A DNA stretch of 32,000 nt from Rhodobacter capsulatus SB 1003 (GTDB taxonomy: Bacteria; Pseudomonadota; Alphaproteobacteria; Rhodobacterales; Rhodobacteraceae). Made by a program: the position numbers and the translations under genes. Below the pieces are notes generated by a model, which was not told where the DNA came from, made no database searches, and worked only from the letters and a program-made list of their open reading frames with translations. Location of the stretch: contig NC_014034.1 in assembly GCF_000021865.1 (NCBI RefSeq), positions 2,160,001 through 2,192,000 of the forward strand, in the 5' to 3' direction. Shown here piece after piece: positions 1 through 14,317 of the stretch (its first letter is position 1; each line of letters starts with the position of its first letter).

Positions 1-2267
1 TCGTGGCGCATTATGCATCGAAAGAGCATTTCTCGACACTTTATTCCGAGATCGTCAAAGCGGTGAAGGATGCGCCCGAAGTCTCCTCCGGGCTGCCGCG
101 GCTCAAGCTATTGCTGAAGCGGGCAGATGGTGTGCGCGGTTATGTGCATGGCCTGAGAGACACACGCAAACATGCATTTGCCACCAAGCTGCCCCCGCCC
201 CCCGCCCCTCGAGAACTTGACGATCCCGCGACGAAGGCGCGTTACATCGCCCTGTTGCGGCTTTACGACGGGCCATTCCGCGCCTACGCTTCTGGCATTA
301 CCGGAACGGCGCTTGCCGGACCTGCCGCGCGCGCCAAGGAAGCGGCAACCGCGCTGGCGCAAAGCGTGAACGTCACGAAGGCGTATTCCGACGTAATGGA
401 AGGGCGCACGAGCCGGTTGCGCCCCCCGAACGATGGCGAAACGCTGCGCGAATATCTCAGCGCCTTGACCGGCGAAACCGCGACCGAGTTCCGGGTGCAG
501 ATCGGGTACGAGTCCGACTCGGAAAACGCCCGCAAACAGGCGGAATTCATCGAGAACTATCGCCGCGACATGCTTGCCTTCATGTTCGAGGATTACATCA
601 GGGCCAAGGGCTTTGACTGGATATTGAAGATCGAGCCGGGCGCGACGGCGATGACCCGCGCGCCCGTCCTGCCCGAGCCGATCGATACGCGGGGCCAATA
701 CGAGCATTGGCAAGCGGCGCTCTATCTGGTGATGCATTTCGTTCCGGCCAGCGATGTCTCGAACCTGCTGCACCAGTTGCGCAAATGGGAGGCGCTTCAG
801 GGCAAATATGAACTGGTCCAGGACGGTGACGCCACGGATCAGGCGGACGCGAGGCGCGAGGCGCTTGATCTCGTCAAGCGCTTCCGCGATGTGCTGGTGT
901 TGTTCCTCAAGACCGGCGAGGCCCGGTTCGAGGGCCGCGCAGCGCCTTTCGATCTGAAGCCGTTTCGGGCGCTCTTTGCCAACCCGGCCACCTTTGACCG
1001 GCTCTTCATGGCCACACCCACAACCGCGCGCCCTGCCGAAGATGACCCCGAGGGGGACGGTGCGTCCGAGCCGGAACTGCGTGTCGCGCGCACCTTGCGC
1101 GGTTTGCGCCAGATCGCGCGCTACAACCATATGGCGGTTCTGAGCGATCTTTTCGCAAAGCACAAAGTGCGGGACGAAGAGGTGGCCCGCTTGGCCGAGA
1201 TCGAAGACGAGACGCAGGAAAAGTCACAGATCGTGGCAGCCCAGGAACTGCGCACCGACCTGCACGACAAGGTGATGAAGTGTCACCCAAAAACGATTTC
1301 CCCCGAGGAGCGGCAAAGTTACGCTGCGGCGATCAAGACCATCGAGGAACACCGGTTTCTGGTCGGACGGGTCTATCTGGGTGATCATCTGCGCCTGCAC
1401 CGGTTGATGATGGACGTGATCGGACGCCTGATCGACTATGCCGGGGCTTATGAACGTGACACCGGAACTTTCCTCATAAACGCGAGCAAGCAGTTGGGAG
1501 CAGGCGCCGATTGGGCTGTCACCATCGCAGGGGCAGCCAATACCGACGCGCGCACCCAAACCCGCAAAGACCTTGCGCATTTCAATGTGCTTGACCGCGC
1601 GGATGGCACGCCAGACCTGACCGCTCTGGTCAACCGGGCGCGCGAGATGATGGCCTATGACCGCAAGCGCAAGAATGCGGTGCCGCGCTCGATCCTCGAT
1701 ATGCTGGCACGACTTGGGCTGACGCTGAAATGGCAGATGAAAGATCACCTTCTGCAAGACGCGACGATCACTCAGGCCGCCATCAAGCACCTCGACAAGG
1801 TCAGGCTGACAGTTGGCGGGCCGGCGGCGGTGACAGAGGCCCGTTTCAGCCAAGACTACCTCCAGATGGTGGCGGCCGTCTTCAATGGCAGCGTCCAGAA
1901 TCCAAAGCCACGCCGCCGGGATGACGGGGACGCATGGCACAAGCCCCCCAAACCCGCGACCGCGCAAAGCCAGCCAGATCAAAAACCGCCCAACAAGGCA
2001 CCCTCTGCGGGCTCCCGTCTTCCGCCCCCGCAGGTGGGGGAAGTCTACGAGGGCGTGGTGGTTAAGGTGATCGACACCGGATCTTTGGGGTTTCTTGCTG
2101 TCGAGGGCGTTGCGGGGAACATTGGCCTGCACATTTCCAGGCTGAGAAGGATCCGCGAAGATGCCATCATCGTCGGGCGGCGCTATCGGTTCCGGGTGGA
2201 AATCTATGTCCCGCCGAAAAGTAACACGTCGAAGCTGAATGCCGCCGATCTGGTGCGGATCGACTGA
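1..2267 (+). CDS. cas13a: Cas13a (C2c2)-like type VI-A CRISPR effector, 5' end cut by the window edge; C-terminal S1/OB-like extension
   Basis: The frame is open from nt 1; the leading M in the ORF track is only the first GTG. Two HEPN R-x4-H motifs are present: LRDTRKHAF (153-179; R 156-158, H 171-173) and TRKDLAHFNVL (1560-1592; R 1563-1565, H 1578-1580). YAGAYERD and AYDRKRKNAV blocks flank the second motif, as I recall for Cas13a HEPN2. A same-strand CRISPR array starts 170 nt downstream. Codons are visibly more A/T-ending than in the core genes. Confidence 0.8.
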   Translation, partial: VAHYASKEHFSTLYSEIVKAVKDAPEVSSGLPRLKLLLKRADGVRGYVHGLRDTRKHAFATKLPPPPAPRELDDPATKARYIALLRLYDGPFRAYASGITGTALAGPAARAKEAATALAQSVNVTKAYSDVMEGRTSRLRPPNDGETLREYLSALTGETATEFRVQIGYESDSENARKQAEFIENYRRDMLAFMFEDYIRAKGFDWILKIEPGATAMTRAPVLPEPIDTRGQYEHWQAALYLVMHFVPASDVSNLLHQLRKWEALQGKYELVQDGDATDQADARREALDLVKRFRDVLVLFLKTGEARFEGRAAPFDLKPFRALFANPATFDRLFMATPTTARPAEDDPEGDGASEPELRVARTLRGLRQIARYNHMAVLSDLFAKHKVRDEEVARLAEIEDETQEKSQIVAAQELRTDLHDKVMKCHPKTISPEERQSYAAAIKTIEEHRFLVGRVYLGDHLRLHRLMMDVIGRLIDYAGAYERDTGTFLINASKQLGAGADWAVTIAGAANTDARTQTRKDLAHFNVLDRADGTPDLTALVNRAREMMAYDRKRKNAVPRSILDMLARLGLTLKWQMKDHLLQDATITQAAIKHLDKVRLTVGGPAAVTEARFSQDYLQMVAAVFNGSVQNPKPRRRDDGDAWHKPPKPATAQSQPDQKPPNKAPSAGSRLPPPQVGEVYEGVVVKVIDTGSLGFLAVEGVAGNIGLHISRLRRIREDAIIVGRRYRFRVEIYVPPKSNTSKLNAADLVRID

Positions 2268-2436
2268 AAATGAGGGTTCAGGTTCAGAACATGTCCAGCG
2301 CCATGAAATATATGGATATAATTCGAATTTTGCGTCCGGATACCGTGCGGATGGGCGAGAAAATTCAGGCATTTGTCGTCACCCTCCGAAACCTCGCCGC
2401 GGATCTCGATTGATTTCAGGGCGCTCCAGTGGTAAA
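2268..2436 (+). promoter_or_regulatory. putative CRISPR leader
   Basis: This is the most AT-rich stretch of the window and lies between the cas13a stop and the first repeat. It contains a TATAAT hexamer at 2317-2322, but I found no convincing -35. The degenerate repeat is at the far end of the array, which agrees with a leader on this side. Confidence 0.4.
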
Positions 2437-2610
2437 GGAGCACATCACCGCCAAAATGACGGCGGACTGAACCTAAGACGGGGACAGTCGACCAGAAACC
2501 CCAAGGAGCACATCACCGCCAAAATGACGGCGGACTGAACCTGCCGGGTCTCATTGAGGATAAGGGCAATCGTGGAGCACATCACCGCCAACATGACGGC
2601 TGGGGATGGC
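2437..2610 (+). CRISPR. CRISPR array with three 37-nt repeats and two spacers (31 and 32 nt); terminal repeat degenerate
   Basis: R1 (2437-2473) and R2 (2505-2541) are both GGAGCACATCACCGCCAAAATGACGGCGGACTGAACC. R3 (2574-2610) is GGAGCACATCACCGCCAACATGACGGCTGGGGATGGC; its first 27 nt carry 1 mismatch and its last 10 nt have diverged. The repeat has an internal CCGCC/GGCGG stem and an ...ACTGAACC 3' end, as in Cas13a 5'-handle repeats. Spacer 1 (2474-2504) is TAAGACGGGGACAGTCGACCAGAAACCCCAA. Spacer 2 (2542-2573) is TGCCGGGTCTCATTGAGGATAAGGGCAATCGT. Confidence 0.85.
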
Positions 2611-2723: not shown

Positions 2724-4274
2724 ATGCTGTCGCCGCAGATTGCATCCCACCCGGTAGCCGAGCACAGCCTGTGCGTTTTTTACGAACTCGACGGAATTGA
2801 TCCTGCTGGCTGGACCGGCCCCCGCTTCGGCAATCTGACCCGAAACCCTGGACAAGGTATCCCCGCCGATCAGAAAGCCGCGCTGCAGGGGCGTTATGCC
2901 GAAGATGCGCTTTGGGAAGCCGACGAAACCCTTTCGGCGGGTGACGATTTTCATGCGCATCTGCAGGAATTGCTGTCGGGCGCGCGCCCCGACTTGGTGA
3001 GGTTCCATCGCCTGACCGAGAGGGGCCACCGCTTTCTCTCGACGGCCTGCCTTTATGAGAAGACAACACCGCCCGCAGACCGGATCGCCAAGCGGCTGCG
3101 ACTGAGCCTGACGTCAGCCGCCAAAGAACGCATTGCTGCGGCGGGTGTCGTGCCGGGCGAACTGGGCCTTGAGGTCGAAAGCCTGTCGCTTGCCCTTTTC
3201 ATGACCGCGCAGGGGCTGGCTTTGTGCCGCTTCGTCGTCGACCGCGAGGATGGCGCCCCACTTTCCGCGGTCGAACTGCTCGAGGCCACGGTTGCGCTTT
3301 CCCGCCTGAACGAGGTGCGATGGATCGACAAGAAGGCCAAAACCCCGATCGAAGCCCCAGCGTTTTCAATGGCGGCCTTGATCGGGCAGATGGTGTTTGG
3401 CAGCCGGTCACAAGCCGAGGTGTCGCGTCGGCTGTCGTCGCATGCGATGGTGCGCTTCGACGCCATCTTGCCGATAACGGACCGCGACCGGTACGCGCTG
3501 ATGCTGGCGCGGCATTACACGACGGATTACCAGCTTTCGCCCGATATCGGGCGCGTCGAATGGGTCAGGGATTTCGAGACAGTTCGACACGCCATTGCGC
3601 TGGAGGGGGCCGCAACGGTGATCGGCCCGACCGAAGGGGCGCCGACCCTGACGGAATTTCTGAGAAATTTCCGGACATCGACCTTCGATCGCCATTATCT
3701 GCCGATCGCGATCCTGGCGCTGCACGAGCGTGCCTTCCTCGTTGCCCGAACCGCGGCCTCAATCATGTCCGCGGCGGAGATGCTGGATGCGCAGAAATCC
3801 CTGCGTCGGTTGGCCGAGTTGCGCGAAGCGGCGCTGGTGCTCCGTCTGTGCTACCGGTTCTCGGAACAGAGCCATATTTCGATGCACAATGCGGTCAACC
3901 TTGCCTGGCGCAAGGTGTTGCGCCTCGACGAGATGCTGGCCGAACTCGACGACAGCATCCGCGATATCGCCGATCATCTGGAGCGGATCCACCGGCGTGC
4001 GCAGGAGCGGAAATTTGCCGGCGTGGCGATCATGGGCGGCGCCATCATCGCCGGCTTCTCGACCTTCTCGATCGTGAAGGATCTGTATGATCTGTTCAAG
4101 GCATCGCAGACTTACGGGTGGATCGGGGTGTGCGTCGGGGGCATCGCGCTGATCGGGGTGGCGGCCTTTGCCCATCGGAAAAGCGCCGTGTTTGGCGCCC
4201 TCGATCAGGACTGCTCCAAGAATTACACCGTCCATGCGATGTTGGAAAAGATGACGCGCCGCAGCAAGGACTGA
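2724..4274 (+). CDS. hypothetical CRISPR-adjacent membrane protein (516 aa) with a C-terminal two-TM hairpin, CorA-like topology only
   Basis: ATG at 2724 is preceded by AAGGAGG (2713-2719). A long, helix-rich soluble part is followed by TM1 FAGVAIMGGAIIAGFSTFSIV (4014-4076), TM2 WIGVCVGGIALIGVAAFAH (4119-4175) and a basic tail. There is no GMN motif and I recognise no family. Confidence 0.75.
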   Translation: MLSPQIASHPVAEHSLCVFYELDGIDPAGWTGPRFGNLTRNPGQGIPADQKAALQGRYAEDALWEADETLSAGDDFHAHLQELLSGARPDLVRFHRLTERGHRFLSTACLYEKTTPPADRIAKRLRLSLTSAAKERIAAAGVVPGELGLEVESLSLALFMTAQGLALCRFVVDREDGAPLSAVELLEATVALSRLNEVRWIDKKAKTPIEAPAFSMAALIGQMVFGSRSQAEVSRRLSSHAMVRFDAILPITDRDRYALMLARHYTTDYQLSPDIGRVEWVRDFETVRHAIALEGAATVIGPTEGAPTLTEFLRNFRTSTFDRHYLPIAILALHERAFLVARTAASIMSAAEMLDAQKSLRRLAELREAALVLRLCYRFSEQSHISMHNAVNLAWRKVLRLDEMLAELDDSIRDIADHLERIHRRAQERKFAGVAIMGGAIIAGFSTFSIVKDLYDLFKASQTYGWIGVCVGGIALIGVAAFAHRKSAVFGALDQDCSKNYTVHAMLEKMTRRSKD

Positions 4275-4486: not shown

Positions 4487-5695
4487 TCACCCCGCGCTTG
4501 GCCTCAGCTGCACCACCTGCACCGACTCGCCGGTCACATAGTCCGCCCATCGCTGCATGAGCGCGGCGCGCTGGTCGAGGTAGTCGGATCTGGCGTAGGC
4601 GCGGCGCACCTTGTTGCCGATGACGTGGCCAAGCGCCGCCTCTGCCGCCAGATCGTGCGAGCCGTCCAGCGTATCCTGCACCCAGGTTCGGAATGTCGTG
4701 CGGAAACCGTGCGGCCTGCCCGCCTCGCCGATCTTGTTCACCGCCTTCAGCAGCGCATTCGGGCTGATCGGTTCCCCGCGATCGCCCGGGAACAGAAGGC
4801 CGGTCTCGGGATCGTTCGAGAGCCGTCGCGCCTCGGCCACGATGGCAAGCGCCTGGGACGAAAGCGGGACGCGGAAATCCGTGGCCGCTTTCAGCCGCCC
4901 CTTCACGCGCTCTTTCGGCACGATCCACAGGCTGCCGTCGATTTCGTTGAAACGCGCGCCCCGGGCCGCATCCCCCCGGACCGCGGTCAGCAGCAACAGG
5001 CGAAGGCACATCAGCCCGGAGGTGTCCCCGGCCAGCCGCGTGAACAGCACCGGGGCATCCTGCCAGCGCGTCGCGGCGATATGCTCGGGCTCGATGTGCA
5101 GATCCCCCAGCAGCTCGCGCGCCGCCGCCAGCGTGTCGGGGTCGACGGCATAACCGATGCGCTTGCCCTTCTTGAAGCAGAGGTTGAGCCGCGAATAGGC
5201 CTTTTCGGCGACCGTCGGCTTCATGCGCCAGATCGGCTGCAGCACGCGCACGAAATCGGCCGTCCGGAGCGATGACGCCGGGCGCGCGCCGATCTTCGGC
5301 AGCACATGGACGCGCAGCGGTGACATCCAGCGCCCCGCCTCCCCCTCGCCCTTGAGCGTGTGCTTGATCGCGCCGAAGACGGTGTCCACAAGATCCGACA
5401 GCGACGGGTCCTCACGCGTTGCCGCGGCCTCCCTCTCGCGCGCCCGCTCGGAGATCGGGTCCCGGCCGGAGGCGAGCACCGCGGCCCAGCGATCCCGCTC
5501 GCGGCGCGCCTGGGCGAGGGTCACGGCATCGAGAGAGCCCAGCCCCATGTCGCGGCGCCGCCCCGCGATCGTGTAACGGTAAAGCCATTTTCCGCCATCC
5601 TCGGTGCGGTCGAGGTATAACCCGGCGCCGTCGCCATATCGCCCCGGTGCCGCGGCCCGGATCTTGACCGCCGTCAGCTTGTCCCTTGCCCCCAT
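4487..5695 (-). CDS. int: tyrosine recombinase/integrase, P4-type
   Basis: The N-terminal arm-type domain reads KLTAVKIRAAAPGRYGDGAGLYLDRTEDGGKWLYRY. Catalytic signatures are LLTAVRGDAARGARF, HGFRTTFRTW and LGHVIGNKVRRAYARSDY. The ATG at 5695 is preferred; the open frame extends to a TTG at 5764. Confidence 0.85.
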   Translation of the reverse strand: MGARDKLTAVKIRAAAPGRYGDGAGLYLDRTEDGGKWLYRYTIAGRRRDMGLGSLDAVTLAQARRERDRWAAVLASGRDPISERAREREAAATREDPSLSDLVDTVFGAIKHTLKGEGEAGRWMSPLRVHVLPKIGARPASSLRTADFVRVLQPIWRMKPTVAEKAYSRLNLCFKKGKRIGYAVDPDTLAAARELLGDLHIEPEHIAATRWQDAPVLFTRLAGDTSGLMCLRLLLLTAVRGDAARGARFNEIDGSLWIVPKERVKGRLKAATDFRVPLSSQALAIVAEARRLSNDPETGLLFPGDRGEPISPNALLKAVNKIGEAGRPHGFRTTFRTWVQDTLDGSHDLAAEAALGHVIGNKVRRAYARSDYLDQRAALMQRWADYVTGESVQVVQLRPSAG

Positions 5696-5951
5696 ATCAG
5701 CCCCACACTTGGCCCCACATTGTCGATGCGGTGCTGGGGTATCACCCGCAACACCTTGAGACAATTACATCTTTGCGGCGTTGAGATTTCCCGGGGCGCA
5801 GAGTCAACCTGAGACGGCATGCAACACGGCACTGGTGCAGACCACCCGCACCATCTGACCTTTCTCTGCCTGCCCGCGCTGCCGTCTCGGGGCGTCTGTC
5901 TGGGCGAATCTTTTCGATCTTTCTGCCGCGCCGGGACCGAAAACGGCCCGG

Positions 5952-9213: not shown

Positions 9214-9342
9214 GTAGGCTCCTGTTTCACAAGGCGGCTTCATAGGGGGCCAGAACTTCCGCAGCCCACCACGAGAGGCGTCGCCGGTTCATGTCATCGC
9301 GGAAGTGAGGGGCTGATAGCCGCTCCCCCCCCGCGATGCAAG
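9214..9342 (-). promoter_or_regulatory. rpsF promoter and structured 5' leader
   Basis: On the minus strand, CTTGCA (9342-9337), an 18-nt spacer and TATCAG (9318-9313) make a possible -35/-10 pair. The leader contains the 8-bp inverted repeat ACTTCCGC (9306-9299) / GCGGAAGT (9262-9255), which encloses 36 nt. Confidence 0.35.
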
Positions 9343-9372
9343 CGAAATCCCCGCCGCTGGCCCCGGTTGCCA

Positions 9373-9582
9373 TGACCGAGGCCATCGCCGAGGTCACGCG
9401 ACACATCTGCCCCGTTCCGGTCGGCGGCCCGGAGGCCGCCGGCCAGCGCCCGCCCCGCCCCCGGCGGGCGCTTTCGCGCCGCCCGGGGCAGGCGCCGGCC
9501 TCTGTCTCGTGTGGGGACACGGTCTTGCAACTGCGTTTCGCAGCGGGCGGGGAAAGGCAATGCCTTTCCCTCTCCGCCCGAA
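9373..9582 (+). repeat. ~215-nt GC-rich structured intergenic repeat, copy 1
   Basis: It aligns along its full length with 28349-28564 and 30449-30664. The shared head is TGACCGAGGCCATCGCCGAGGTCA. The shared hairpins are AGCGCCCGCC..GGCGGGCGCT and the nested CGGGCGG-GGAAAGG..CCTTTCC-CCGCCCG. Confidence 0.85.
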
Positions 9583-9592
9583 GCAAAGGTCG

Positions 9593-10483
9593 TTATCTCC
9601 GCCCCGCCAGCACGATGCCGCCAAGGATCAGCCCGAAACCGGCGGCATGGTAAAGATGAAGCGGTTCATGCAGGAAGGCCGCCGAGAGGATCGCGCCATA
9701 GACCGGCAGCAGGTGGATGAACTGCCCCGCCCGCGCCGGGCCCGCCATCTCCACCGCCTTGGTATAGAATAGATAGGCCAGAACCGAGGGCACGATGCCG
9801 ATATAGACCAGCGCCCCGATCGAGGCGGGCGTCCAGACCGGCACCCGGCCCGAGCTGATTTCCCAGACCAGAAACGGCGCCAGGATCGGCAGCGCCAGCG
9901 CGATCTGCACCGCCAGAAGGCCGATCCGGTTCACCTCGGCCGGGAAGGTCTTCAGCCCCATCGTGTAAAGCGCCCAGGCCACCATCGCGGCGAAGATGAT
10001 CAGATCGCCGCGCGCGAAATCGAGCGCCGCCGCCCGTTCCCATGAGCCCTGCAAGATCACGACCGCCACCCCAAGCGTCGAGACGATCAGCCCGAGGATC
10101 GCCCAAAGCCCGAGCCTTTGCCCCCAGAAGAGCGCCCCCAGAGCCATGATCAGCAGCGGAATGGTGGAATTCAAAAGCATCCCGTTCGTCGCGGTCGAGG
10201 TCTGCAGCCCCCAATAGACGAGCGAGTTGAAGGCCGCGACGCCGGGCAGCGTCAGAAGCAGGATGCGCCCGAAATAGCGGCGGTAAAGCGGCCAGTCCCG
10301 GCGCAGCCAGGGCCAGGCAAAGGGCAAAAGCGCGATCAGCGCGATCGACCAGCGGCCAAAGGACAGCGCCACGGGCGGCCACTCGCCGCGCGAGGCCCGC
10401 GCGACGATGAAGTTTCCAGCCCAGAACAGGGGCGGCAGCGCCAGCACCGCCCAAAGTTTCCAGCCACCCTTCGTCTCGCCCAT
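9593..10483 (-). CDS. EamA/DMT-family transporter (about 10 TM)
   Basis: MGETKGGWKLWAVLALPPLFWAGNFIVARA... is hydrophobic throughout with a duplicated EamA-like layout. The ATG at 10483 follows AGAGGAGG. Confidence 0.85.
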   Translation of the reverse strand: MGETKGGWKLWAVLALPPLFWAGNFIVARASRGEWPPVALSFGRWSIALIALLPFAWPWLRRDWPLYRRYFGRILLLTLPGVAAFNSLVYWGLQTSTATNGMLLNSTIPLLIMALGALFWGQRLGLWAILGLIVSTLGVAVVILQGSWERAAALDFARGDLIIFAAMVAWALYTMGLKTFPAEVNRIGLLAVQIALALPILAPFLVWEISSGRVPVWTPASIGALVYIGIVPSVLAYLFYTKAVEMAGPARAGQFIHLLPVYGAILSAAFLHEPLHLYHAAGFGLILGGIVLAGRR

Positions 10484-10556
10484 GCCCGCCTCCTCTTTGC
10501 CCTTGGTTTGGGCCGAAATGAGGGCGGGGGCAAGAGGGCGGAAGCAAGGGGGCGGG

Positions 10557-11942
10557 CTATTCGGCCGGGGCCAGCCCGCCCGAAAACGCCTCGCGTCCAA
10601 GGCCCCGGGCATTTTCAAAGACGTCCATGCTTTCAAAGACATAGTCAAAGAAGCTGCGCTGCGTCTCGACCTCGATCTCATAGATCTCGATCGGGGCAAA
10701 GCGCGGATCGCGCAGGATCCCCGCCGCAATCCAGCGGTTGACCATCAGCATCCGGTCGCGCTCGGCGGCATAGATGCCGTTGAACGAGACCTCGGTCTTC
10801 ATGTCCTCCAGCGCGAGCTTGCTGTCGGGCAGCGGCCCCAGCCATTTGCGGTTGACCGGCCGCACCACATGGATGGTGCGCGCGCAGGAGAGTTCCGACA
10901 AAAGCACCGGCCGGTAATAGGCGCCATCGAGCGCGCCGAAACCGCCCTCCGGACTGCCCTCGAAGCCGTATTCGTAAAGCCAGAGCCCGTCGGCGCACCG
11001 CCTGCGGCGTGATTTCGGTGTAGATCGTGCGGCTGCGCAGCTTTTGCGCCCGCCGGGGGCGATTCCCAGCTGTGCCAGCGCCGAGGGGTTGGCATGGACA
11101 TATTCGACCCCCTCGCGCGGGTCGTAGGCGTTGAACAGAATGCCGATCCCGGTGGCGTTGAAGGCTTGCGCGATCTCGGCAAAGAAGCTGTCGGGGAAAA
11201 GCGACACCAGCGTGCGCGCCGGGGTCAGGCTCATCATCTCCTTGAGCCAGAACACATTTCCCCCCGCGCGCGAAACCGCATCAAGGCTGCGCGCAAGGTT
11301 TTGCATGACGTCGAAGGGCCATTCGAAAAGCGAGGGCCGGAACACCCCGCTTTTGCCGAACAGCGCCATGTGCATCAGATCGGCGTCGCGCTGGCCAAAG
11401 GGCTGCAGCGTCTCGATCTGCTCGGCCAGATGGGTTTCCAGGCTTTCGCCGCCCGCAAGCGCCTGCAGATAGCGCCAGACCCAATAGATCTGCCCCGAGG
11501 TGCAGGAAATCATCCGCGGATGCACGCCGCCTTCGAGCGCCGCCTGCAGAAAGCCCGCCCCATGCGCGTTGTTGCCCGCAAGCCCGCCAAGCGCAAAGGC
11601 CACCTCGGTTTCCGAGGTCCGCGTGACCTTTTCCACCACCGGCTCGGCGGCGGGTTTCGGATCGGATGCGGGTTTCGCGGCCGCTGCGGGTTTCGCGGCC
11701 GCTGCGGGCTTCGGCTTTGCCGCGGCGTCCTTGGCGGCAGCCCTGGCCGCTTCCGCCTTCGCGGCCGCGTCCTTGGCTGCGGCCTCTTCCCGCGCCTTGG
11801 CCTCCTTCGCAGCCGCGTCCTTGGCCGCGGCCTCCTTTTCGACGACCTCTTTCGCGGCCAGATCGGCGCCGGTTTCGGTCGGCGCGGCCGGGCTGGCGGC
11901 CGCCTCCGTCTGCGTCTGATCCTTCGGTGTCGGCTCTTCCAT
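10557..11942 (-). CDS. patatin-like/hypothetical protein with an Ala/Lys/Pro-rich N-terminal region
   Basis: LGGLAGNNAHGAGFL, ISCTSGQ and ALDGAYY resemble the patatin G-G-x-R/K, G-x-S-x-G and D-G-A motifs, but only loosely. The ATG at 11942 is preferred; the track start at 11957 is a TTG. There is a local frame anomaly at 10992-11059. Confidence 0.6.
   Translation of the reverse strand: MEEPTPKDQTQTEAAASPAAPTETGADLAAKEVVEKEAAAKDAAAKEAKAREEAAAKDAAAKAEAARAAAKDAAAKPKPAAAAKPAAAAKPASDPKPAAEPVVEKVTRTSETEVAFALGGLAGNNAHGAGFLQAALEGGVHPRMISCTSGQIYWVWRYLQALAGGESLETHLAEQIETLQPFGQRDADLMHMALFGKSGVFRPSLFEWPFDVMQNLARSLDAVSRAGGNVFWLKEMMSLTPARTLVSLFPDSFFAEIAQAFNATGIGILFNAYDPREGVEYVHANPSALAQLGIAPGGRKSCAAARSTPKSRRRRCADGLWLYEYGFEGSPEGGFGALDGAYYRPVLLSELSCARTIHVVRPVNRKWLGPLPDSKLALEDMKTEVSFNGIYAAERDRMLMVNRWIAAGILRDPRFAPIEIYEIEVETQRSFFDYVFESMDVFENARGLGREAFSGGLAPAE
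11668..11703. repeat. tandem 18-nt repeat inside the patatin-like CDS
   Basis: GCGGGTTTCGCGGCCGCT occurs twice perfectly, flanked by degenerate units. It encodes (AAAAKP)n. Confidence 0.8.
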
Positions 11943-12080
11943 CGCATCCCCCTGCAAGCATGCACACCCGGTTTCCCCCGCCGGGCGCCGATTCCGGCCC
12001 GGCGGTGATCTCGCATAGGTTGAGTGTATCGCTGCTTTGCAGAAAAGTCACCTTCGCAGTTGCAGCATCTGCAGGCGCTT

Positions 12081-13478
12081 TCAGCCGACCAGCGCCTGCA
12101 CCAGCCGCGCCAGCCGGGCCGAAAGCTTGCCATAGGGCGGCATCAACGGGTCAAGCACCGCAAAACGGTTCTCAAGCACCGGTTTTTCATGGGAAAAGGC
12201 TTGAAAGCCCCAGCGCCCGTGCGCCGCGCCCAGCCCCGATTGGCCGATCCCGCCAAAGGGCAGATTGAGATGCAGGAAATGCGCAAGCGTCACATTCACC
12301 CCCACCGCGCCCGAGGTCGTGGCGGCGCAGATCCGCGCAATCAGCTTCCGGTCGCGGGCAAAGACATAAAGCGCCAGCGGCTTTTCCCCCGCCTCGATCC
12401 CGGCCAGAACGGCGCCCAGATCATCATAGGCGATCACCGGCAGGACGGGGCCGAAGATCTCCTCGCGCATGAGCGCGGCATCGGCGGGCACATGCGTCAG
12501 CACCGTGGGCGCAAGGTAACGGCTGGCGGCCTCCGCCTCGCCGCCCGTGATCAGGGTGGCGCCATGGCCGACGGCCTCGGTGACCATGCCGCGCACGCGT
12601 TCGAAATGTTTCGCGCCAATCAGCCGGGCAAAACTGCGCGAGGCCTGCGGGCGGGCGCCATACATCCGCGCGATTTCCGCCCGCAGCGCCTTGGTGAACC
12701 CCGCCTCCTGCGCGCGGGGGACGAAGACGTGATCGGGCGCGATGCAGGTCTGCCCGGCGTTCTGAAACTTGCCCCAGGCCACCATCCGCGCCGCCTTTTT
12801 CAGATCGGCATCGGGGCCCAGGATGACGGGCGACTTGCCGCCCAGCTCCAGCGTGACCGAGGCGAGCGTTTTCGCCGCCGCCGCCATCACCACCTTGCCC
12901 ACCGCGGGCGAGCCGGTGAAGAAGATATGATCGAAGGGCTGCGCCAGAAGCGCGGTCGCGGTCTCGACGCCGCCTTCAACCACCGCCACCAGATCTTCGG
13001 GCAGGCAGGCGGCAACGATCTTTGCCACCAGCGCCGAGGTGGCGGGCGCCAGTTCCGAGGGCTTCACCACCGCCGCATTGCCCGCCGCGATCGCGCTGAC
13101 CAAAGGCCCCAAAGCCAGACACAGGGGATAGTTCCAGGGCGCGAGGATCAGCACCGTGCCTTTGGGTTCCGGCCGGATCGTCGCGCGCGTGCCGATCATC
13201 GAGAGCGTCGGACGCACCCGCCGCACCCCCGCCCAAGCCTTCAGATGCCGCGAGGTATGGCGGATTTCCGACAGGATCGGGATGATTTCCGAAATCCGCA
13301 CCTCGACCGCGGGCTTGCCCAGATCGGCAGCCAAGGCCGCCATGATCTCGGCCTCGCGGGCGCGGATTTCGGACGCCAGCCGCTTCAGCACCGCACGGCG
13401 CTTTTGCACGGTGAACTCGGTCCGCCGCCGGGCATCGCCCGCCCTCAGACGCGCAAAGGCCTCGGCGGCGGGGCTCAT
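12081..13478 (-). CDS. NAD(P)+ aldehyde dehydrogenase (class-3/coniferyl-aldehyde DH-like)
   Basis: Motifs seen are APWNYP, VTLELGGKSP, the catalytic-Cys region NAGQTCIAPDHVFV, and EEIFGPVLPV. Confidence 0.9.
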   Translation of the reverse strand: MSPAAEAFARLRAGDARRRTEFTVQKRRAVLKRLASEIRAREAEIMAALAADLGKPAVEVRISEIIPILSEIRHTSRHLKAWAGVRRVRPTLSMIGTRATIRPEPKGTVLILAPWNYPLCLALGPLVSAIAAGNAAVVKPSELAPATSALVAKIVAACLPEDLVAVVEGGVETATALLAQPFDHIFFTGSPAVGKVVMAAAAKTLASVTLELGGKSPVILGPDADLKKAARMVAWGKFQNAGQTCIAPDHVFVPRAQEAGFTKALRAEIARMYGARPQASRSFARLIGAKHFERVRGMVTEAVGHGATLITGGEAEAASRYLAPTVLTHVPADAALMREEIFGPVLPVIAYDDLGAVLAGIEAGEKPLALYVFARDRKLIARICAATTSGAVGVNVTLAHFLHLNLPFGGIGQSGLGAAHGRWGFQAFSHEKPVLENRFAVLDPLMPPYGKLSARLARLVQALVG

Positions 13479-14317
13479 GCCTGCACCACGACTTGCCGCT
13501 GCGACCCGAGCCCGGTGATGCCCAGCTCGATCACATCGCCCGCATGCAGGAATTTCGGAGGCCTCGATCCCATGCCGACGCCGGGCGGCGTGCCGGTGGT
13601 GATGATGTCACCGGGCTCCAAAGTCATGAACTGGCTGAGGTAATGCACCAGAAACGCCACGCCATAGACCATCGTCGCCGTCGTCCCGGTCTGCCGCCGC
13701 ACGCCGTTCACATTCAGCCACAGATCCAGCGCCTGCGGGTCCTTGATCTCGTCCTTGGTCACGAGCCAGGGCCCCAGCGGCGCGAAAGTGTCATGGCTCT
13801 TGCCCTTGACCCATTGCCCGGAGCGCTCGATCTGGAAGCTGCGTTCGGACACGTCATTGCAGATCATGTAGCCCGCAACGTGATCCATCGCGTCCTCGAG
13901 CGTCACATATTTCGCCCGCGTGCCGATCACGAAGGCCAGCTCCACCTCCCAGTCGAGCTTCTCCGAACCGCGCGGCGCTTCCACGTCGTCATCGGGCCCG
14001 CAGATCGCCGAGGTCGCCTTCATGAAGACCACGGGCTCGGGCGGCACGGTCAGCCCGGCCTCTTCGGCGTGATCGGCATAGTTCAGCCCGATCGCGATCA
14101 GCTTGCCCACGCCCGCCACCGGCGCCCCCAGACGCACCCCTTCGGGAATGATCGGCAGCTTGCCCGCATCGGTCCAGAACAGTTTCGACAGGCCCTCGTC
14201 GCTCAGCGCCTTGCCGTCGATATCACGCACCACGCGCGACAGATCACGGATCGTGCCGTCGACGTGCAGGAGACCGGGCTTTTCGGCGCCCCTCTCTCCA
14301 TAGCGAACCAGTTTCAT
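13475..14317 (-). CDS. fumarylacetoacetate hydrolase (FAH) family protein
   Basis: MKLVRYGERGAEKPGLL... continues to GLNYADHAEE..., ELAFVIG and GDIITTGTPPGVG. The ATG at 14317 follows GGGAG. The stop overlaps the ALDH start (ATGA at 13475-13478). Confidence 0.88.
   Translation of the reverse strand: MKLVRYGERGAEKPGLLHVDGTIRDLSRVVRDIDGKALSDEGLSKLFWTDAGKLPIIPEGVRLGAPVAGVGKLIAIGLNYADHAEEAGLTVPPEPVVFMKATSAICGPDDDVEAPRGSEKLDWEVELAFVIGTRAKYVTLEDAMDHVAGYMICNDVSERSFQIERSGQWVKGKSHDTFAPLGPWLVTKDEIKDPQALDLWLNVNGVRRQTGTTATMVYGVAFLVHYLSQFMTLEPGDIITTGTPPGVGMGSRPPKFLHAGDVIELGITGLGSQRQVVVQA

Follow-up and report, generated by a model that had tools for sequence, protein, structure and literature searches.

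Positions 1-2610 of the 32,000-nucleotide (nt) stretch of the Rhodobacter capsulatus SB 1003 genome analysed here (assembly GCF_000021865.1, contig NC_014034.1, forward-strand positions 2,160,001 to 2,192,000; hereafter the window) almost certainly hold the C-terminal 754 codons of RcCas13a, the effector of a type VI-A CRISPR system, followed by a two-spacer CRISPR array, and the two would act by the mechanism set out below. This system is already known and well characterised and is not a new one. An earlier prediction, made from the sequence alone and referred to here as the original prediction, had assigned the region to a Cas13a-like RNA-targeting system; its observations were largely correct, with one motif misassigned, and its interpretation is supported. 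The tests that it proposed, namely structure, arginine and histidine mutants of the HEPN motifs, processing, collateral cleavage and expression of CRISPR RNA (crRNA), are already published (PMC8776769, PMC11089165). The case can serve as a positive control, in that a Cas13a was recognisable from its HEPN2 context and repeat anatomy, and as a caution, in that a lone R-x4-H is no evidence for a HEPN site.

Identity of the effector gene and its catalytic residues

The open reading frame (ORF) at 3-2267 on the plus strand, in frame 3, encodes 754 amino acids (aa), ends with a stop codon at 2265-2267 and continues past the left edge of the window; the ORF listing thus agrees with the original prediction of a frame of at least 754 aa that runs without a stop from the edge of the window to 2267. 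In a comparison with PDB sequences, residues 532-1285 of chain A of entry 7OS0, the RcCas13a-crRNA complex (Kick et al. 2022, PMC8776769), were identical to the fragment throughout (754/754 residues, 100%). Positions 1-2267 (+) are the 3' part (59%) of cas13a, codons 532-1285 and the stop codon, with the frame beginning at nt 3. The fragment alone scored 429 bits against the NCBIfam Cas13a equivalog NF038188, for which the cutoff is 150 (E = 4e-128). Between the full-length protein, P0001 (1285 aa, annotated as a type VI-A Cas13a of Rhodobacter capsulatus), and the window fragment there is a single substitution, T667S, and P0001 matched the PADLOC Cas13a model with E = 7e-197; four PADLOC Cas13a models were matched. 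The type VI-A call of the original prediction is therefore borne out by the identity to 7OS0 and by the Cas13a profile search that it had proposed as a check. In our copy of Pfam there was no match to Cas13a, despite the precomputed matches to the Cas13a families PF28192 and PF28350 recorded for P0001. We read this as a gap between library versions, and it is therefore no evidence against the Cas13a identity. The bilobed alpha-helical fold with its composite HEPN site can be assigned through the identity to the solved structure 7OS0. Nothing contradicts the identification as RcCas13a.

The array can be named as well. In the map of the SB1003 locus given by Kretz et al. 2024 (PMC11089165), an array of two spacers (5-6) stands immediately 3' of cas13a; this is the array in the window. 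Between the window and the published RcCas13a (7OS0; Kick 2022; Kretz 2024), the fragment's residues, the array, and the catalytic and processing residues are the same and nothing of substance differs, except that the window is without residues 1-531, which include R464/H469 of HEPN1. The comparison with LbuCas13a and LshCas13a (5XWP, 5XWY) is more distant, with ~23% identity to RcCas13a (PMC8776769). Here the HEPN2 R-x4-H and the next helix, D-R-K-x-K-N, align (E = 1e-9 to 8e-11), and in all of these systems the repeat comprises a 5' handle, stem-loop and 2-nt bulge, the effector processes its own precursor crRNA (pre-crRNA) and there is collateral RNase activity. RcCas13a differs from these two in that its repeat stem has one extra C-G pair, that processing is carried out by R1085, N1089 and H1113, and that it has an extra C-terminal OB-fold domain.

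The original prediction rested in part on two R-x4-H motifs about 470 aa apart, read as the HEPN pair. Both are present, RDTRKH at nt 156-173 and RKDLAH at nt 1563-1580, with 469 aa between them, and it is the second that was correctly recognised. In numbering taken from the 7OS0 match, where window residue 1 is native residue 532, the plus-strand motif at 1563-1580 is R1052-K-D-L-A-H1057 of HEPN2, a published catalytic pair for which mutants have been described, and it is invariant in relatives. The strings YAGAYERD before it and AYDRKRKNAV after it, to which the original prediction had pointed as HEPN2 context, both occur in the translation; the latter, however, contains R1085 and N1089, two residues of pre-crRNA processing. 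They and H1113 were found by mutagenesis (PMC8776769), and they place the processing site within HEPN2 at 1662-1748 (+), with R1085 at 1662-1664, N1089 at 1674-1676 and H1113 at 1746-1748.

The first motif is a different matter. According to Kick 2022 (PMC8776769), the catalytic tetrad is R464/H469 of HEPN1 and R1052/H1057 of HEPN2. The actual HEPN1 motif is RNQTFH (residues 464-469), which full-length P0001 contains and which lies 68 codons upstream of the window, so that both catalytic R-x4-6-H pairs are accounted for, HEPN2 in the window and HEPN1 only in the full-length protein. R583-D-T-R-K-H588 (156-173, +), which the original prediction called HEPN1, is a non-catalytic chance R-x4-H, and residue 583, judged by the structures of other Cas13a proteins, would lie in the Helical-2 region. 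Four such strings occur in full-length RcCas13a, at 464, 583, 761 and 1052. Of those in the fragment, RGQYEH (nt 690-707, +; native 761-766) had been overlooked and is unconserved in relatives. The fragment holds three R-x4-H strings, against a mean of 1.76 in shuffles (P = 0.26); the motif thus occurs at chance frequency, and an isolated R-x4-H is therefore uninformative as HEPN evidence. When the four closest relatives were aligned, R464, H469, R1052, H1057, R1085, N1089 and H1113 were invariant, and R583/H588 were not conserved. That the motifs at nt 156 and nt 1563 jointly form the composite HEPN site, as originally proposed, is accordingly very improbable: both motifs exist in the sequence, but structure and mutagenesis identify R464/H469 as the catalytic HEPN1 pair, and in the published mutagenesis R464A/H469A alone kills activity. 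On the published pair, the non-conservation and the chance frequency, RDTRKH can be ruled out as the HEPN1 catalytic motif.

Downstream of HEPN2, the gene encodes a C-terminal extension (CTD) of ~120 aa at 1905-2264 (+), consisting of a Pro/Lys-rich linker and then an OB-fold (cold-shock/S1-like) core at ~2037-2204. This part, native ~1166-1285, is disordered and not visible in the crystal; Kick 2022 describes it as cold-shock-like by HHpred and as dispensable in E. coli assays (PMC8776769). The same authors called the CTD unique to RcCas13a, yet we also found it in P0002, a metagenomic Cas13a with 46% identity. The core (nt 2037-2204) has 45% identity to the C-terminus of P0002, whose residues 1217-1272 match Pfam CSD (E = 3e-6), and the fragment has a weak match to the S1 domain of DHX8. 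A low-confidence model of the CTD (predicted local distance difference test score, pLDDT, 55; built from a two-sequence alignment) contains five beta strands. Its closest matches in the PDB are without exception OB-fold proteins that bind nucleic acids (RNase R, S1, IF1, CspA); given the model, these matches are supportive at best. The CTD is an RNA-binding-type OB-fold appendage common to at least one sister lineage.

The two-spacer array and the proposed mechanism

The array starts 170 nt past the cas13a stop codon, on the same strand, as had been noted originally. Its leader, at 2268-2436 (+), is A+T-rich at ~2300-2335 and is conserved in six R. capsulatus contigs. It is followed by a 37-nt repeat (repeat 1, 2437-2473, +), which provides the 5' handle of the spacer-5 crRNA, the 31-nt spacer 5 (2474-2504, +), a second 37-nt repeat identical to the first (repeat 2, 2505-2541, +), which provides the 5' handle of the spacer-6 crRNA, and the 32-nt spacer 6 (2542-2573, +), found in every R. 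capsulatus contig examined. The array closes with a degenerate terminal repeat (2574-2610, +), with ~70% identity to the reference repeat, in which the 3' half has diverged, the stem is broken and the fold differs from that of repeats 1 and 2. This copy is needless for either handle, because Cas13a handles stand 5' of the spacer. A 28-nt repeat core occurs in two copies in the window and in none of 100 shuffles. The repeats end in GGCGGACTGAACC and contain the CCGCC/GGCGG stem described in the original prediction, with a folding energy of -9.9 kcal/mol (z = -2.4). In the 28 nt that close the window repeat, CACCGCCAAAAUGACGGCGGACUGAACC, the positions given in the crystal crRNA numbering as C-28, A-21, G-16, A-15, A-8, C-7, G-5 and C-1 all match.

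Strain contigs show some variation in this stretch. Spacer 5 and one repeat (repeat 1) are missing in contigs L002, L003, L005 and L006, the window spacer 5 is 1 nt shorter than its counterpart in L001, and three further small differences between the window and the strain contigs lie in the leader and trailer. At 2270-2413 (+) there is also a 47-aa ORF, for which several assemblies have a gene call (47 or 54 aa). It overlaps with the array leader, A+T-rich stretch included, and probably represents the leader/promoter region rather than a gene. A scan of the leader with the sigma-70 consensus found no promoter; an active promoter before the smaller array has been reported by Kretz 2024 (PMC11089165). 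No Rfam family, CRISPR-DR families included, was matched anywhere in the window at gathering thresholds.

The upstream flank of the gene was examined in R. capsulatus genome contigs (e.g. L001) recovered by exact full-length protein look-up. A second array, made up of five repeats and four spacers, lies upstream of cas13a on the opposite strand (L001 ~9320-9650, minus). The variant of the repeat in it, GCCTCACATCACCGCCAAGACGACGGCGGACTGAACC, departs from the window repeat in the 5' flank and at two loop positions, where the window repeat has A-19/U-17 and the upstream-array repeat G-19/C-17.

What this effector and array would do can be put together from two sources: the identity and anatomy come from the present analysis, and the biochemistry and physiology from the literature on the same protein. 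In the first step, the leader promoter of the array would drive its transcription. Cas13a, through R1085, N1089 and H1113 in HEPN2, would then cut the pre-crRNA 4-5 nt 5' of the repeat stem-loop and yield crRNAs of ~58 nt, each made up of a 28-nt 5' handle and a spacer. Pairing of a complementary RNA with the spacer would bring HEPN1 (R464/H469) and HEPN2 (R1052/H1057) into one composite RNase site, and this site would cleave the target and bystander RNAs, leading to growth arrest.

The published data cover each part of this scheme. RcCas13a cuts its pre-crRNA 4-5 nt 5' of the stem-loop independently of metal and leaves a 2',3'-cyclic phosphate, the mature crRNA is ~58 nt, and the seed comprises spacer nucleotides 10-14 (PMC8776769). 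In E. coli, mutation of any catalytic HEPN residue left neither cis nor trans cleavage, and co-expression of RcCas13a, crRNA and target in that host slowed growth (PMC8776769). In R. capsulatus itself, stationary phase and oxidative or membrane stress co-induce the cas13a promoter and both array promoters, CRISPR RNAs were detected on northern blots, and protospacer 6 together with Cas13a led to reversible growth arrest and new 5' ends across the transcriptome (PMC11089165). Protospacer 6 of Kretz 2024 matches the second spacer of the window, at 2542-2573. The crRNA-guided cleavage of single-stranded RNA, collateral RNase activity and dormancy that had been predicted from this locus are thus published for the same protein and host.

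Some caveats attach to this reading. HEPN1 and the N-terminal half of the protein lie outside the window, and the locus has a decayed adaptation module, so that ongoing adaptive immunity is unproven. The natural target of spacers 5 and 6 was not found. Exact 22-23-nt cores of both spacers retrieved no protospacer from IMG/VR, a blastn search of all six spacers against GenBank phages returned only a 19-nt chance match in an E. coli phage, and all six spacers gave no protospacer in any locus fetched. Lastly, the text of the crystal structure names a contact to C-17, made via the pyrimidine carbonyl (PMC8776769), and this fits the upstream-array variant, whereas the window repeat carries A-19/U-17. 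Since the contact is to the pyrimidine carbonyl, a U at -17 is presumably tolerated, and the in-vivo activity of spacer 6, the handle of which comes from the A-19/U-17 variant, supports this tolerance.

Adaptation remnant and mobile setting of the locus

The CorA-like neighbour, the prophage/integrase setting, the truncation of RT-Cas1 (RT, reverse transcriptase), the sharing of the CTD and the phage-borne Cas13a are not mentioned in PMC11089165, PMC6753606 or PMC11662929. We regard these surroundings of the effector as modest leads, not findings.

The original prediction had noted that no other cas gene lies between the effector and the integrase. This holds, since the sole intervening ORF is non-Cas; after the array, the gene order is a 516-aa ORF, the integrase on the minus strand and then tig. 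It had also noted the lack of cas1-cas2, which is correct inside the window but not upstream of cas13a, where an RT-Cas1 remnant accompanies the four-spacer array. No intact cas1/cas2 or RT-cas1/cas2 stands beside the effector in the window, and upstream in L001 there is only the 91-aa RT fragment. This ORF, at L001 8944-9219 (-), is the gene drawn as "cas1" in Fig. 1 of Kretz 2024 (PMC11089165). It matched the PADLOC RT model (E = 9e-19) and also the RT-Cas1 fusion model, and it shares 65% identity with residues 1-88 of the RT-Cas1 beside the P0002 cas13a, which is intact at 654 aa. On these matches, the "cas1" of Kretz 2024 is a truncated N-terminal fragment of an RT-Cas1.

P0002 was the closest relative found (46% identity overall; metagenomic), and upstream of cas13a its locus has a divergent array together with RT-Cas1 and Cas2; the repeat is similar. 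The locus can be compared with the alphaproteobacterial type VI-A/RT1 systems (Rhodovulum, Rhizobium; Toro et al. 2019, PMC6753606). R. capsulatus differs from these in that its RT-Cas1 is cut to the first 91 codons, cas2 is gone and a second mini-array lies 3' of cas13a. In R. capsulatus, then, the locus belongs to the VI-A/RT1 group in decayed form, without a working adaptation module of its own.

On its other side, the locus borders on a P4-type tyrosine integrase at 4487-5764 (-), which abuts tig and which we give for context only. It matches Pfam Arm-DNA-bind_3, Phage_int_M and Phage_integrase and the PHROG integrase (E = 1e-42), and it marks the end of the variable region next to tig. 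Just upstream of the cas13a locus, the R. capsulatus contigs carry genes for phage tail, holin and endolysin (L001 1-8400), so that the locus stands directly after phage genes and directly before an integrase. This raises a different reading of the cassette as a whole. The cas13a gene, the two mini-arrays and the CorA-like gene may be carried as cargo by a temperate phage or an integrative island, serving mainly in inter-element competition or superinfection exclusion for the element rather than in chromosomal host immunity. The guanine and cytosine content of the locus is slightly under that of its flanks, in keeping with this reading. So is its distribution: among GTDB species-representative genomes, a protein-pattern scan did not find RcCas13a and a repeat-pattern scan did not find its repeat, and the locus is therefore part of the accessory genome.

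A further argument for mobility comes from a viral contig of IMG/VR (IMGVR_UViG_2889914905_000002; L039), in which we observed a Cas13a relative at 10001-13678 with 31% identity to RcCas13a. An array lies just downstream on the same strand as this gene (13781-14135), and the two stand between portal and head-maturation protease genes, with terminase, endolysin and tape-measure genes nearby (1527-22721). The contig is independent support that this Cas13a lineage can travel on phages.

However, the signs by which an integrated element is usually delimited could not be recovered at this locus. A transfer RNA (tRNA) scan of the window found none, and with it no tRNA attachment site for the integrase; the intergenic region of int and tig shares no exact repeat of at least 13 nt, as expected of attachment (att) repeats, with the 16 kb upstream; and a search for an empty site by exact look-up of the Tig protein returned only contigs that also have the island, so that there is no empty site to compare. 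The far end of the prophage was not seen, and the holin alone among the upstream phage genes matches a deposited phage (RcapNL). With no att repeats, tRNA or empty site, carriage of the locus by a prophage is therefore plausible but unproven. Taking both sides together, we hold the cargo reading to be a serious possibility, though somewhat short of an even chance. It would alter the ecology of the system and not its mechanism, which remains that of the RcCas13a effector and its array.

The CorA-like neighbour

The ORF between the array and the integrase, at 2724-4274 (+), encodes a putative divergent CorA-like membrane protein of 516 aa, the relation of which to the CRISPR system is uncertain. 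It matched the PADLOC "CorA-like" model with E = 4.8e-6, and 28 of the 30 members of its family do so too, the best with 1.7e-10. Its AlphaFold (AF2) model (pLDDT 83; predicted template modelling score, pTM, 0.78) has an alpha/beta domain at its N-terminus, then a long stalk helix and, at the C-terminus, two helices (401-458 and 464-491), with which the hydrophobic segments at ~431-452 and ~463-485 coincide. In a Foldseek search of the PDB, the top six matches were all CorA, that of T. maritima being the best, at weak scores (E ~5e-3, TM-score 0.15-0.28); ZntB came after. Other searches did not recover the assignment: the protein has no Pfam, NCBIfam or PHROG match, Pfam CorA (PF01544) was not matched even at E <= 1, the GMN motif is in none of the 30 family members, and a profile search of PDB sequences returned no CorA. 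There was also no match to the protein in a tblastn search of phage genomes.

CorA proteins are known beside other CRISPR systems, type III-B and type VI-B1/RT (Molina-Sanchez et al. 2024), and the 516-aa protein resembles these in its soluble N-terminal domain, stalk helix and two C-terminal transmembrane helices, in its PADLOC match and in its place downstream of a Cas13 gene. It differs from them in lacking the Pfam CorA match and the GMN motif, in not accompanying other Cas13a relatives and in having homologues that travel with STAND NTPases. The CorA genes 3' of cas13b in RT-associated VI-B1 loci provide divalent-cation transport and dampen interference (PMC11662929). By analogy with these, and with Csx27/Csx28 of type VI-B, the protein might be a functional accessory of the type VI-A system, a membrane effector or modulator of Cas13a-induced dormancy. 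The gene does lie on the same strand, 113 nt past the array, with a strong Shine-Dalgarno sequence and no terminator-like site from the array to its start codon; the R. capsulatus locus stems from an RT-Cas1-associated VI-A lineage; and the gene adjoins the cas13a locus in all R. capsulatus contigs. These contigs represent one species, however, and the adjacency is therefore not independent evidence. The family profile found no member at 22 other loci with Cas13a relatives, in E. coli RcCas13a and crRNA suffice to give cleavage in cis and in trans and to slow growth, and elsewhere the family adjoins STAND/NACHT-type NTPases, not CRISPR. CorA is not mentioned in the RcCas13a paper of Kretz 2024 (PMC11089165). 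An accessory role for this protein is, on balance, unlikely, and the family was rejected as a conserved Cas13a partner on account of its absence from the 22 relatives' loci.

The two ideas about the surroundings could also be combined. The cassette would then be prophage or island cargo, and the CorA-like protein a so-far unrecognised type VI-A accessory that tunes dormancy at the membrane. We consider this combination improbable as well. If it were true, the CorA-like family would elsewhere provide STAND/NACHT NTPase systems with their membrane partner.

Homologues of the CorA-like protein occur in conserved operons with large STAND-type NTPases and a ~173-aa protein (L013 10001-16614; L014 10001-16622; L016 2130-9630). 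The NTPases are ~1450-1490 aa long, with weak matches to NACHT, ATPase_2 and AAA_16/22, and the operons resemble a candidate system of defence type that includes a membrane partner.

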